Shown in pieces: positions 5,562-32,120 of a stretch of DNA of 64,000 nt (position 1 is its first letter; every line of letters starts with the position of its first letter). This stretch comes from Podarcis cretensis (taxonomy: Eukaryota). The stretch is from positions 24,428,001-24,492,000 of the forward strand of contig OX638159.1 in the NCBI GenBank assembly GCA_951804945.1, in the 5' to 3' direction. The position numbers were made by a program, and so were the translations under genes. The notes below the pieces were generated by a model. That model saw only the letters and a program-made list of their open reading frames with translations. It made no database searches and was not told where the DNA came from.

Positions 5562-5863
5562 CTTTAGTCCTACTTGGGTATTCTTCATGCAATTGCAATA
5601 CCCCAAGAAAACAGAGCTGCACTGGCTGAATCCACCCCTAACATACCCCACCAAGCATCTGAAGCATGCATATTGCTCCATGTTTGTAGGATCCCCATGT
5701 GATTAAGAACCCTTAAGATTCCCCACCATGCATGGAAGGTGTTGACAGAGATGCAACAGGGGGCTCAGCCCTAGCCTCCCAATTCATGTGACTGTAATCC
5801 AACAGGGATTGTCTGACTTTTTAAGATGGGAGGTTTGTGTTCTTTGCTCTGTAAGCATCTCAG

Positions 5864-25830: not shown

Positions 25831-28399
25831 AGGCATCAGTTATCCCCTCCCAGTTGCAATGACAGGACACTTCAACTAGTCCGAAAGGTAGAACTCGTAA
25901 CGTCATCTGGGATCTGAAGATTGGAGCACATCTCTACTTTGTTTCCCATTGTCACGGGATGTAAAATAGTGAAAAGGAGAGCAACGGGCTAGTTTCTCAC
26001 AAAAAAACAAGAATAATACCTGCACATTTTGTGTCATATCTCAGGTTCTACAAATGCTAGAAATGTACACTTTTTTTTTTTTTTTTTGTAAATGCAAGCT
26101 GAGGAACTGCATATTACAGTTCATCTGAGGGAGGGAAGAACTGCCCCTTCCCGCCACTTTCACGCACAATCTACTCTCATATGAGCCTGTCCACAATTTA
26201 ATCACTGGCTTTAGGGGCACTGTTCTCTGTCCCATCCTTTGGTGAAATCAAATGCACATGTTACCAAGACTGTGGAATGCCACTTCCATAGAGATCTGCT
26301 AGCCTCCTTCTTTTCAGACATCTCCAAAATCTCCTACAATTTAGCTCACTTTTCATGTGTGACTCTTAAATCTGCTGCATTCTGCTGTTTTATTATCTGC
26401 TTATACTGCACTGCAGCATTTTAAATTTTGCTTTTATGGTATTGTTTAATTTTTAATGCATTTTTAAAAGCCGCTTTTAACAGTTTTTTTGTTTTTTTTA
26501 ATATGACACTTGTGAAAAGAGCTCAAACTGGGAGAAAGATTTGCATTTTCTTCCCGGATGCATATATGAGTGTGATATCCAAACAAAGAACATGATATAA
26601 TAATAAATAACTATCTTCATGCACCCAGGAATGCAAGAAGCCAATATAGGGGGTGGGAGAAAACATGGCTATCTTAACTTAATCTGTGGTTGACAGTGGT
26701 ACTCACCACAGGATACCAAAGTGTAACCCACACATATTACATTTACCAATAATGAACTGGAAAAGGGAGAAGAGTGGCAATACTTGCAACAGACGCAAAA
26801 TGATTTTGGTCAGGTGAAAAAGAGAATATTGCAAGAAGGAACCGAGTAACGCTAGAAATGCTACTCCTGTAAATGAACTGTCATCACTCAAGAAGAAAGA
26901 ATTGTGCAAACGAAAACCCAACTTTCCTTTCTCATATTCCCTAAGCTCTGTCAATTTTCCTGCCAGTCTACATTTTGCTTGTTCTCATAGGCCTCATTAA
27001 TAATGTTGTACCCTTTGGCTTCATGATTCTCCAGACCCCCCTTGTCCCATTTTATAATGGCTGTTCACATCTTCCATTCGACAGGTGTACAGTCTGTGCA
27101 CACAAAAGCTGAACTGTGCAAATAAACAAGTGCATATTCTTCCACACAAACACTTGCCCGTGCGCAGAGACAGCTTGTACCTGTGTTCAATGCCGTGTGT
27201 GAATAAGCCTAGAATATTCCTACATGGCATGCTTTTTAAACCTCTCCCTCACTCTCAAAAACACACACACTTCTCTTTATATGCACCCCACAATATCCTA
27301 AAAGTGATTCTCATGGCTCAACTCCCAAGAGACTGCGATCAGGTCAATTTTTAGGGGAGCCAAACTTGTTGAGCTTCTTTGGGGGGAACCAGTGATCTGC
27401 CAGTGATCTACTGCAGACGTCCAGTAATCTACCGGTAGATCACAATCTACCTGTTAGATGTGCCTGTCATAGCTTATTTCTGCCCATTCCACACTCTTCC
27501 CCTTAAACACAAAACACATACATATGTGGCACTTTCAGAGTCTTTGAACCTTTGGTGCAAATATTTTTCACCCAGGGTGGAAAACAGTTGACCACTCATT
27601 TTTAACTGACCCAGTGTTGCAGCCTACGCAGGTTTTAAATTTGCATTGTGGGTATTGGGAAATGAAAAATAGAATTCAGGCTCATCTGTTAAAAACATCC
27701 TAGGCCACCTTTCTCATAGCGCCTGTGAGGACATACCAGCAGCCTGTGTCCCTGTGAATCAGCTGCTGACAATGAACAGCTGCTACTTGATGGGAAATAC
27801 TGGCTTCCATTGCCAGAAGGAAGTAGTAGATCTTCCTCTAGCCAGCACCTGTTGCCTCCCCAAACCTTATGAAGCATTAACATGGGGTATTCCCACAAGG
27901 TTGGCAGTGCTTTTTCCCCTGGGCATTGCGTGACTTGTCCGATGGCCTCAAGTCATTCCTTAAATATCTATCAAGGAGTTGTTCTGAGTACTGAAAAAGG
28001 CCAACTGTCTAGTGATCAAAGTCCCAAGTTGTGAAAATATCAGGTCAAAGGGCCATTCTTTGAGCTTTGGCACATAGCATATTCTTATAAACTATCGTGG
28101 CTGATAGAGCTTTTTTTAAGTAATGGAAAACTCTCTGTTGACAATGCGGCAATACTATCCTGTATTGTGGTGGTTTCTCCTTAGCCGGGGTAGCTCTGGA
28201 AGAGCTGAGCTCCAAGAAATGACATTTATCAAGAAGCTTAGTGCAGCCAAGTGATAAATGGGGCAAGCCAGGAACAGATCAAAGAGACCCTCTTAGTCTT
28301 CCATTCAAAGAATCAGGCAGGGAATGGCATGCTAAGTAAGTGCATGGCAAGTCGGGTGTGAAAAATGATCTCTCCTACAAGAATTCCATTGGTGACAGA

Positions 28400-28830
28400 T
28401 AATCAGAAATTTAAATGGCATTCCCACCTTCAGAAAGTGCCTTAAATAACGGGGGCTGCATGAAACCGTTTGTATTTAAAGGAGAGGCTGAATAATTTAT
28501 TGCCGAGCAGAACGCACAGCACCAGGCAGATAAATGAGGAAATCCCAGCGCAGTCTATCTTGCGCAGTTGCCACACTAATTACAGATCAATTACTTACCA
28601 GTTGTTTGCAACCTTATCAAAGAATAGTAAATTTACTGAGAGGAAAATGTGATAAGATGACTTTTCATTATTACAGTAGATTTGTTGAAACAGCTCTGAC
28701 ACCGAGATTAATAAGAGCTTTCCCAGAGGTAATGCGATCAGTATGCACAGAGCGAGAATGTTAAAAGCTGAAAACTTGAACCTCGGCACTATCATAAAAG
28801 TCCTTGCATGAATGAATCATTTTCACGGGA
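28400..28830. promoter_or_regulatory. Candidate conserved non-coding element (enhancer)
   Basis: Repeat-free with many retained CpGs; TAATTA (28577-28582), ATCAAAG (28616-28622), GATA and TTTAT motifs. Conservation is inferred. Confidence 0.45.
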
Positions 28831-29426
28831 GTGTCCTTAACACAGAAGGGTGGGGCGTGGGGGCAGTCTGATAAACTGCAATCTTACTACAGGGATTATA
28901 TATGTACCCCTTTCTGTTTCTTCGAAGAAGAACAGTGGAAGAGGGTGTTTTCTTTTTCTTTTTTAAGTGTTCACAGTCAGCTGCCTTGTATCAAGTCAGA
29001 TCATGGGCCAATCTAGTTCAGTATTGTTTACACTGACTGACAGAGCCCCTACAGGGTTTCAGACTGAAGTCTTGCTCAACTGTACATAGAGATGCTCTGG
29101 ACTGAACCTGGAGCCAGGGTCCTTCTCTCCCCACCCCCCATTATGGACATTAAGGGCAGGTGGAAGCTCCCCACATTTTGTGTTGTGCAGTTTGCTCTAA
29201 AACAAGGGGCAAACAGTTTTGAAGGGAGGGATAAAGATATCACACAGTGTATATTTGTGTGAATGTGTACATGTGTGCACCAACAGTACTCTTCCTGCAT
29301 TTGGATGGCACCATGGGGGTGGGTGTTCAGCACAAAACCTCCATGTTCGTAGAATCGTGGAGCTGGGGGGGGGGGACCACGAGGTTCATCTCATCCAACC
29401 CCCTGCAATGCAGTGATCTTTTGCCC

Positions 29427-29842
29427 TAGCAAAACAACAACAAACAAACCTATGGTCATGTAAGCTATTACTATGCCATAAGACCCACTGTCCTGTAAAA
29501 TCAAATATGAGCTTTAACTACTGATGAAGCCCAGGATGGCAAAACAAGGCCAATATTCCAGAAATCCTTGTCTTTAGACTCTGCAAAAGGATTCTGTGGA
29601 ACTGTAACAACCTTTCGTGTGGATTGTTTGGACCTTATGAACAGACAGGTGGAATAGACACTATTACACAGATGGACCTTATGCATGAACTGACTAGAGG
29701 ATGATCTGATCCACTGGGTCTTCTGCTTTGTTCGTTTGTTGAACTTTATGAGTTACTTCTGTTGAAATTTATGATTTGATACAATGAATAGTATACCTTA
29801 TTTATCTAAGAACACAGCTGGTTACGTCTTGTGTGTTTGTTG
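29427..29842 (+). mobile_element. ~416-bp insertion with a hammerhead-ribozyme motif (Penelope-like pLTR or retrozyme-like)
   Basis: 15-bp TSD agt(g/a)atcttttgccc at 29412-29426 and 29843-29857; short inverted ends (caacaaac / gtttgttg); hammerhead core at 29521-29572. Confidence 0.7.
29509..29581 (+). ncRNA. Degenerate type I hammerhead ribozyme motif
   Basis: CTGATGA-A, stem II gcc/ggc, (G>A)AAA, stem III caagg/ccttg, then TC; stem I is imperfect. Confidence 0.55.
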
Positions 29843-30924
29843 AGTAATCTTTTGCCCAACATAGGCCTCAAACCCACAACCCAGAGACTAAGAGTATCAT
29901 GTTCTGCCAACATGGATTATGAAATGCTAGGCGCCAACAATCAGATAACCCCATCAGCTTCACATTTGCACCCTTGCTGTGAGTTTCCAAGGAATATCTG
30001 ACAAGTTAAGCTTAGAAAATGAAAACTGGATTGCATTGGCTGTTGGTCCAATCTGGCAGGACGCTGCTTATGTTAACTAGTCCCCCAAACAGTTACATGA
30101 CTATACAGGGGATCTGTGTAATTTGTAAGATTGTCAGTCGGCCAGGGGGGAAAAACCCACACCAGCCTGTCTCGCTTGCTCCTGACAGCTTTTAACAAGT
30201 GATTTCCGATTTGCAGGAATCAGCAGGTAGTATGGAGCTAAGCATTATTGTTTGCTATGTCTTCAGATCAGGCTGCTATCAAAGGCAAAGAAGCAGAGAC
30301 TCATGAAAAAATTGGCACCCCTAACGATTTTTTCACAGGTGCCATGCGATTTGCAAGGACTGGTTGTGCTAAATGTCAACCAAGAAGCATACAAAGGCCA
30401 GCGCAGGATTGTCATAACAGAACAAATGGTGCTTTTTGTAGAACTCTGAAAGTGAAAAGCAGCGTTTTTGAGACAGGCATGTCTTGGCAAGGATACCTTG
30501 AAACAGAAAGTGATTGATAGCAACTGGAACATCCTTTCCTGGCTGTACATATAATATATTCATATTCCAACTTAATTGGGTGAGTTACCATTTGAGTGAG
30601 CACCAAGATCACTGTTCTTTTTCATCCCAAATTGAATCTTTCCCAAAGAGAATATAGAATGACTCTTCCTATAAAAAAAGGGAGGAGAGGGAATATAGTG
30701 TGAATAGGAGAAGCCAATACACATTCTCTGAGTGTACTTGAAGAAGTAATGTATGGCAAAACTAAGATGCAATGGTATTAGGAAAATACAAACTGTGAGC
30801 CCACAATAGTCTCACGTGCTGAGACGTTTTGCCACAATAAGTGCATTTTAGCTGCTGCCATCATTATCTGATGGAAGGAACATGTTTGCTCCCCTTTCCC
30901 AATTATGATGAGGGACAGCAGGAA

Positions 30925-30945
30925 AAGAAGAAGAAGAAGAAGAAG

Positions 30946-30974
<29 letters not shown>
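30925..30974. repeat. (AAG)n microsatellite at an L2 tail
   Basis: About 16 AAG units; source of the poly-Lys pseudo-ORF. Confidence 0.95.
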
Positions 30975-30976
<2 letters not shown>

Positions 30977-31289
30977 TGTTATTTATATGCCGCCCATCTG
31001 ACTGGGTTCTCCCAGCCACTCTGGGCAGCTCCCAACAAATTAAAACACCAAACACAGTAAAACATCAAACATCACAAAGTTCCCTATACAGGGCTGCCTT
31101 CAGATGTCTTCTAAAAGTCAGATCGTTGTTTATTTCCTAGTCATTTGACAGGAGGGCGTTCCACAGGGCAGGCATGACTACCAAAAAGGTCCTCTGCCTG
31201 GTTCCCTGTAACCTCACAATGAAGGAGCTGCTTTGCAGCTGGACCTAAGTGTCTGGGCTGAACAATGGGGGTGGAGACACTCCTTCAGG
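30975..31289 (-). mobile_element. L2 LINE 3' end
   Basis: Same family as 17701-18020 and 47368-47638. Confidence 0.85.
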
Positions 31290-32120
31290 ATTGAGGCATC
31301 TGTGGCCCTCCAGGTGACTCTTAATCCTATCGCCCCCATCCACGAGGACTGTTGGTAAGGGATGTTTGGAATTGCAACATCTGGATGGCCTCAGCTAACT
31401 CTGAGGTAGGAGAACTCATGATGCAGAGGACTATACTAGCCCTTTTCAGAGGTTACTTTCCACACATAGCCATAATATATTTTTTTGGGGGGGGGGGGAG
31501 TGAGCAGGGACCCAAATCCCCATCCCTGATGGATCCACCCAGACTTTTACATATTTATGCTGTTTGCTGAATTGTTGATTTCCCCCTCCTTGAGATTGCC
31601 AATATTTTGTAACATGCTGGTGTTTTTGGAATGTGATGTTGTAATTTTAATGATAAGTTGATGTTTATTGCAAGCTGTTTTGGGCACAATCAACTGTGGA
31701 ATAGAAGCATGCTAACAAATTATGCCACCTTGAACCAAAATGCATCGAGTTGAATGGGTGTAGGTTTCTCCGTGTCACCGGGGATCCTGCATGATTTGGG
31801 CTCCTGGTTACACGGAGAAGGCTACACATGTTCACCTGAACACACATAGCTTCTGTGTTTAGACCTTCTTCCCGAAACACAAACGTCTGGAGGTAGAGTG
31901 GCAATGGTATCTGGGTGTGTGGAAATAGGAGTGGGGCCAGTGATCGCCCCCATCATGTTCTTTTGAAGAGGGGCTAGTGGGTCTTGTGATTAAACACATT
32001 TCCTCAAAAGAAGCATAAGTAGGAGTGTTGCTTGATTAAAGAAACATTCATTGATTAATCCTAAGAGTTTGATTAAATTTGGGGAGGAAAGATAGTTCCC
32101 AAGCACAAACAGTAATTAGG

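Follow-up and report, generated by a model that had tools for sequence, protein, structure and literature searches.

Introns and ribozymes of Penelope-like elements

Penelope-like elements (PLEs) have been described as unusual for retaining introns, a trait whose significance is called unknown by Craig et al. (2021, PMC8557442). Penelope transcripts are mostly spliced, and intron retention has been put down to selection (Schostak et al. 2008, PMC2377424); alternatively, an antisense template or unspliced sense RNA has been proposed to account for it (Arkhipova et al. 2013, PMC3846280). In Drosophila virilis Penelope, splicing also replaces the 5′ strand of hammerhead stem I (Cervera and De la Pena 2014, PMC4209133). 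Published accounts of PLEs already cover hammerheads, tails, and inverted pieces (PMC4209133, PMC8557442, PMC11167929, PMC8969392), and a CX2-5CxxC linker between RT and endonuclease (EN) serves as the criterion for Neptune elements, which have it in common with Nematis (Craig et al. 2021, PMC8557442).

The window considered here is a stretch of 64,000 nucleotides of Podarcis cretensis DNA, taken from a 1.5-Gb genome in 51 contigs. It contains a 416-bp insert that is an intron-less solo pseudo-LTR (pLTR) of a decayed PLE, provisionally of the Neptune type. Intron-less genomic copies are not described in the consulted portions of the D. virilis Penelope accounts (PMC2377424, PMC4209133), and a literature search found no description of spliced genomic PLE copies; the main older reviews, Repbase, Dfam, and supplements were outside its scope, and an earlier mention is quite possible.

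Anatomy of the insert and its target site

The insert occupies positions 29427–29842; the 416-bp length given in the preliminary description was confirmed, along with the 15-nt target site duplication (TSD), which has one mismatch. The claim that it splits a SINE was likewise borne out, both flanks being contiguous in three distinct uninterrupted SINE copies (five matches). The head of this SINE we take to be tRNA-Lys-derived; Rfam returned no tRNA match on window positions 27000–32000 or on one SINE copy. A (GAA)n microsatellite at about 30920–31000 produced chance Rfam matches only.

What had been described as short inverted ends are not terminal inverted repeats: the 5′ end is a reverse complement of the 3′ tail of the family (Table 1). 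Its outermost base, C29426, is common with the TSD, and its last three, AGC at 29463–29465, are common with the forward part; at the other end, AGTA at 29843–29846 belongs to both the element and the right TSD. Exon 1 of the window copy starts at position 1871 of a longer reference copy, L031, in which the inferred +1 is position 1866. The preliminary description missed both this inverted-tail origin of the 5′ end and the exact loss of an intron.

Two other classes were rejected for the insert: a solo LTR of an LTR element (TG..CA ends, 4–6-bp TSD), in view of TSDs that are mostly 14–15 nt and variable 5′ ends, and a MITE with terminal inverted repeats, in place of which inverted pieces of 15–311 nt and variable 5′ ends are found.

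Table 1. Features of the insert and its flanks, in window coordinates
Feature	Position	Strand	Remark
3′ part of interrupted host SINE	29345..29411	-	flank contiguity in three uninterrupted copies; left end approximate, by eye
Left TSD, 15 nt	29412..29426	+	occurs once in uninterrupted SINE copies
Inverted copy of family 3′ tail	29426..29465	-	putative second cDNA, beginning at distal end site S2
pLTR leader exon 1	29463..29509	+	starts 5 nt behind inferred +1 A
Exon-exon junction	29509..29510	+	83-nt GT-AG intron (L031 1918–2000) missing exactly
Stem I proximal 5′ strand CTA	29518..29520	+	partner TAG 29575–29577
Type I hammerhead core	29521..29572	+	CUGAUGA to C17 at 29572
Remainder of pLTR exon 2, to proximal end site S1	29573..29842	+	
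Right TSD	29843..29857	+	
5′ (tRNA-like) part of host SINE	29858..29911	-	flank contiguity in uninterrupted copies

A dispersed family joined to PLE protein sequence

The insert belongs to a multi-copy family, here called family A: a first look gave 451 candidates, the best of the 40 scored being 87–94% identical, and one 19-nt tag has 180 exact genome matches as against one for its reversed control. Upstream of the repeat, the longer copies have a 3′ UTR and, beyond that, a broken ORF, and they join the repeat physically to RT and GIY-YIG sequence, a linkage that the preliminary description had proposed as a check. In L031/L081 the linker, the GIY-YIG end, the 3′ UTR, and the pLTR form an unbroken series preceded by an inverted piece; L040 carries RT sequence; and L088, L090, and L097 contain RT, GIY-YIG, and a sister pLTR in that order. 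The latter three, together with L331, represent an older sister subfamily, whose pLTR is 67–68% identical and has its intron at the same position; in L088 a broken core is directly followed by a spliced core in the same orientation.

The protein pieces of family A are 37–48% identical to the protein of a second family (family B, below), and on their own remain below the Pfam cut-offs. CCHH zinc-finger residues of the endonuclease could be read from tblastn-aligned pieces of L081, L090, and L097, and the CX2-5CxxC zinc-finger-like linker between RT and EN is present in L031 (as CX2CxxC), L097, and L090. It is by this linker, which also occurs in Nematis, rather than by an RT tree with named references, that the family is tentatively placed with Neptune; a protein database search with the RT piece, confined to longer proteins, gave 480 candidates, none of which was scored. 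Family A is decayed, as only seven RT matches exceed 70% identity and all are fragments, and no full-length element (a 5′ pLTR joined to the ORF start, or pLTR-ORF-pLTR) was found. Two side observations concern individual loci: L031 has an old internal duplication of its 3′ UTR (1534–1644 and 1683–1799, about 110 nt, 73% identical), and L040 and L041 (C13, 21.6 kb apart) present the same insertion with its flanks twice, reflecting either a local segmental duplication or an assembly duplicate.

Exact intron loss coupled to a putative start site

Between the bases corresponding to window positions 29509 and 29510, the longer copies have 83 nt that begin with GTATGT and end with TTAG. The fetched loci hold 153 distinct core-bearing copies (anchors), which divide into 69 spliced, 57 unspliced, and 27 truncated or unclassified; among loci chosen by an intron-blind tag (n = 56), the corresponding numbers are 29 spliced, 18 unspliced, and 9 other. 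The junction has exactly the expected length in 67 of the 69 spliced copies, and in the other two (L183 and L249) it is 2 nt shorter, possibly through use of a second AG just downstream. A single-pattern genome count of the spliced junction, which covers some subfamilies only, gave 20 matches.

The 5′ starts of spliced copies are clustered, 60 of 69 falling at reference positions 1863–1879, with a TATA-like box at 1836, 30 nt ahead of them. Sequence upstream of the start site is present in 2/69 spliced versus 36/57 unspliced copies, the second figure being inflated by the search query used to collect the loci; in the intron-blind subset the comparison is 1/29 versus 6/18 (p 0.009). Among the 17 spliced copies joined at the inferred +1 A, 11 carry an extra G just ahead of it, at a place occupied by T in the element (p 0.0006 against a null of 0.25), about half of these G's being also readable as the last base of an inverted piece or of a local duplication. 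An extra 5′ G is expected from a copied cap. Both the start site and the cap are read here from DNA only.

Spliced and unspliced copies do not form separate lineages. A tree was built from the 93 copies whose exon 2 alignment covers 255 nt or more. Spliced status switches 31 times along it, where shuffled labels give a mean of 30, and both forms stand on either side of the sole well-supported branch and in every subfamily, the tree being star-like (70 of 90 branches open). The short spliced copies are therefore intermixed with unspliced ones, and the separate non-autonomous family envisaged in the preliminary description is not seen. RNA reads from sequencing runs of the same label, mapped to an unspliced family A copy, are sparse on either strand, form no peak at the start or the end, and include one possibly intron-skipping read per joint; they are uninformative either way.

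The same signature in a second family

L092, L093, and L299–L328 represent family B, a second Neptune-type family, which is younger, has two introns in its leader, and contains a 749-aa frame (RVT_1, E 2.9e-7; GIY-YIG, E 1.9e-4 and 22.1 bits against a cut-off of 22.6); in L093 the pLTR end is joined to the ORF start. Splicing in this family was predicted beforehand from an AG just before its core, and 23 of 46 matches proved to be spliced. The 30 fetched copies comprise 18 spliced and 12 unspliced ones; 17 of the 18 reach exon 1, and those 17 are also without the second, upstream intron. All spliced copies start at position 5781 or later, behind a TATA-like box at 5763, and sequence upstream of the start region is present in none of the 18 spliced versus 10 of the 12 unspliced copies. 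Since a G is templated at the start, family B provides no test of the extra 5′ G. The 3′ ends are more spread than two sites and lie upstream of the first ATG, and the RNA reads (3–8 per run) are uninformative either way. The hammerhead of family B is more canonical, with a 5-bp stem I and a short stem III, and one of its introns ends exactly at the first core base, so that splicing replaces the 5′ strand of stem I.

A third PLE family, family C (L094 978–7894 and L095 2089–5799), has open 925-aa frames, a 3011-bp tandem that is 99.97% identical, and many near-identical copies, on which grounds it is likely to be active; the hammerhead-like core in its pLTR is minimal and has a long stem II. 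A partial tandem pLTR-ORF-pLTR arrangement was seen in families B and C.

Paired end sites and inverted tails

The 3′ ends of family A concentrate at two sites, S1 and S2, the latter about 35–40 nt beyond the former: among 78 mappable copies, 45 end at S1, 29 at S2, and 4 between them, in keeping with the optional tail of 30–40 bp that endonuclease-bearing PLEs have at only one end. Sixteen copies had both ends mappable; 15 of them combine an S1 end with an S2 end, and the remaining one is ambiguous. L025, which is outside this scripted count, is an exception with two S1-type ends. Of the 39 spliced copies whose 3′ end could be mapped, 22 have an inverted, 5′-truncated piece at the 5′ junction. 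The window copy is one of the 22; in it, the S2 product ends a few bases short of S1 and is joined through AGC. TSDs of 10–19 nt, mostly 14–15, accompany 14/22 spliced copies with an inverted piece and 3/17 without one, compared with 0/39 control flanks.

The hammerhead motif

The core letters listed in the preliminary description were all recovered in the window copy: CTGATGA at 29521, an extra A at 29528, GCC/GGC for stem II (3 bp, 6-nt loop), CAAGG/CCTTG within stem III (6 bp including A15.1-U16.1, 16-nt loop), and GTC at 29570–29572. The core fails at G12, which has decayed to A at 29541, and the hammerhead is a passenger in this copy. The proposed origin of AAAA by CpG decay of GAAA agrees with the family: in the 124 of 153 copies that could be parsed for hammerhead positions, the C11.1-G12 dinucleotide is CG in 75, TG in 24, and CA in 20, and an intact GAAA is present in 97, AAAA in 20, CTGATGA in 100, and TC in 115. 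In 52 of the 124 the core and stems II and III are complete. Pairing in these two stems amounts to 0.90–0.97 per pair, with no compensatory changes within family A; in stem III of family B, one A-U to G-C change was seen by eye.

Stem I is weak on its predicted pairing. Its CTA/TAG strands pair at 0.91–0.96 across the 124 copies and give only 3 bp, with 1–2 extra U next to them in 100 copies; a distal helix is possible between GAG (29509–29511) and CTC (29579–29581), and in three older sister copies the stem I positions are unpaired. The repair suggested earlier, restoring "ag" after the cleavage site, occurs in none of the 124 copies, which have T, TT, or TTT followed by AG (24, 95, and 5 copies). 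In 44 copies the hammerhead fold lies a median of 3.7–4.1 kcal/mol above the free fold, free folding of copies prefers other structures and does not yield the hammerhead, and folding of the window copy gives a z of 0.22. A covariance-model check with Rfam also returned no hammerhead match on window positions 27000–32000 or on copy L015. In the family, the centre of loop III (window 29550–29565) is an 8-nt palindrome, which has decayed in the window copy; such a palindrome might permit dimerization.

Genomic traces that may reflect self-cleavage are limited to few copies. Four (L043, L091, L099, and L103) have as their first base the one that follows C17, and two (L159 and L176) begin within 2 nt of the cleavage site. 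With a tag adjacent to the site, 9 of 20 junctions fall within 2 nt of it (p 6e-5, flat null), after 11 of 31 rows were dropped (five with a substitution or 2-nt insertion only, two tandem duplications, and four later TE insertions); with a tag 16 nt downstream, 4 of 29 fall exactly at the site (p 0.004–0.012), after 22 of 51 rows with substitutions, short deletions, duplications, or later insertions were dropped; and with a distant tag, which gave 46 rows, only 2 of the 41 that break within range do, without a clear peak (p 0.07). These three tests overlap and share copies, and two were counted by hand. On balance, the breaks lean somewhat towards hammerhead cleavage in vivo; the alternative is RT stalling at stem III. 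The hammerhead nevertheless appears to have been uncut in nearly all templates. Other changes were also observed at this place: L165 and L169 have an identical 11-nt tandem duplication across the cleavage site, and L151, L160, and L177 have short deletions ending at it.

Origin of the spliced copies

We consider it likely that the RT-endonuclease of the element itself made the insert, with a capped and spliced leader RNA of sense polarity as its template. More generally, the start-limited spliced copies, the extra G, the scatter of the spliced form in the tree, and the repetition in family B indicate that PLEs probably reverse-transcribe such RNA, and that their intron retention seems to depend on position. 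Pol II would start within the pLTR, the cap-proximal intron would be spliced, and the uncleaved RNA would be bound at the RT start sites; because these lie at the end of every pLTR, priming would be possible either in the leader or in the downstream pLTR. Priming in the leader would copy only the spliced leader, up to the cap, whereas priming in the downstream pLTR of a long RNA that includes the ORF would retain the intron and the promoter; for that reason, only downstream-primed copies could found new active elements, and spliced leader copies such as the window insert would be dead ends. The downstream intron might stay unspliced through its distance from the cap, which is a guess. At the target, both strands would be nicked about 14–15 nt apart, one nick priming at S1 and copying to the cap and the other priming at S2 and copying the tail, and the two cDNAs would join head to head through 3 nt of microhomology. 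Against this explanation, two spliced copies extend beyond the main start on its upstream side, and that start is also where several unspliced copies begin.

The full combination of statements is advanced tentatively, as one that we doubt slightly more than we trust: PLE intron retention would depend on position and not on which strand serves as template; dead-end copies of capped, fully spliced leaders would make up about half of Neptune insertions; introns would survive only via copying from the downstream pLTR; splicing would rebuild stem I; each of the two nicks would use its own RT start site; and hammerhead cleavage in vivo would have left its scars in a few per cent of copies.

A SINE-like offshoot is unlikely, though a serious contender. 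Here, unspliced solo pLTRs that keep the TATA would be transcribed alone, and their spliced RNAs mobilized in trans by PLE protein; the chemistry would be unchanged, and only the source of the template would differ. The scarcity of ORF-bearing copies (the seven fragments above 70% identity) relative to at least 180 pLTR copies speaks for it, as does the retention of upstream sequence by 36/57 unspliced copies; however, no supported clusters of spliced copies surround single solo copies, and the tree is star-like inside each subfamily.

Much less credible is a non-LTR retrozyme, that is, a self-propagating non-autonomous unit of which hammerhead-cut monomers are circularized and reinserted. This reading is already largely refuted. 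A type I hammerhead core, an insert without an ORF, at least 180 dispersed copies, and a few copies beginning at the cleavage site all fit it, and such units are reported as pLTR-derived and often monomeric in the consulted part of a recent preprint (bioRxiv 10.64898/2026.07.22.740005). The check for tandem copies nonetheless gave no same-strand hammerhead pair in 210 partly redundant loci with a core (opposite-strand pairs number eight), no circularly permuted unit is present in the fetched loci, the spliced copies form no clade, 60/69 of them begin near the TATA-linked site, some 115 nt ahead of the cleavage site, and longer copies continue from the unit without a break into RT and GIY-YIG sequence. 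Of the preliminary interpretation, what stands is that a Penelope-related repeat bearing a hammerhead is present here as a dead copy that needed an RT from elsewhere; the retrozyme and circular-RNA part is wrong or unsupported.

It is also highly improbable that a LINE (CR1/RTE/L1-type RT) produced processed-pseudogene-like copies of pLTR transcripts. Spliced, cap-started copies with 14–15-nt TSDs do resemble LINE-made retrocopies, and LINE pieces are common in the loci, but there is no poly(A) or simple-repeat end, the 3′ ends are at the same S1/S2 sites as in unspliced PLE copies, and S1 and S2 are used in pairs with inverted tails. Scarcely conceivable, finally, is an origin of the intron-less form by one or a few genomic deletions in a master copy without splicing: short internal microhomology deletions are common in family A, yet the GT-AG ends are exact in 67/69 copies, both forms occur in every subfamily, intron loss is coupled to the 5′ start, and two separate introns were lost together in family B, which refutes this origin unless exact deletion removed both of those as well.

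Spliced copies that start at a promoter-linked site, present in two families, are evidence at the genome level for the copying and insertion of spliced sense RNA. They also place the start site of a Neptune element, its introns, and its RT start sites with no need of RNA data, and they permit a direct test of priming in the leader versus the downstream pLTR. In addition, solo hammerhead-bearing pLTRs can be miscalled as retrozymes.

Comparison with known systems

The comparisons below are with the consulted portions of the published accounts. Animal non-LTR retrozymes (Li et al., bioRxiv 10.64898/2026.07.22.740005) resemble family A in being non-coding, pLTR-related, dispersed monomers with a type I hammerhead; unlike them, family A has no tandem units, and it shows promoter-linked starts, a splicing signature, and contiguity with a PLE ORF.

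The similarity to D. virilis Penelope (PMC2377424, PMC4209133) is closer. Penelope has a 5′-UTR intron of 75 bp located 46 bp behind the start, compared with 83 nt located 52 nt behind it in family A. In both, the intron ends at the 5′ side of helix I, so that the hammerheads of spliced and unspliced RNA differ, an extra base is present between positions 9 and 10.1, and loop III is palindromic. The promoter of Penelope is internal and TATA-less, whereas families A and B have a TATA-like box 27–30 nt upstream of their starts, and stem III of family A is long (6 bp, 16-nt loop), unlike that of Penelope (PMC4209133).

In Poseidon of Anolis carolinensis, two RT start sites bracket the tail, an arrangement that S1 and S2 match (Frangieh et al. 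2024, PMC11167929). Further likely parallels are the nicking and extension of both target strands, uncleaved RNA as the main template, and a weak, protein-assisted hammerhead (PMC11167929). Poseidon belongs to a different clade, however; its RT start sites are internal to the ORF, and its hammerhead and start codon overlap, whereas family B has its ends upstream of the first ATG. In addition, no RNA ends at the cleavage site are reported for it, whereas here a few genomic copies start there (PMC11167929).

With respect to Neptune PLEs, described as retaining introns (PMC8557442), about half of the insertions in the two families studied here are without them exactly. The departure from described PLEs is the abundance of exactly spliced, start-site-limited genomic copies.
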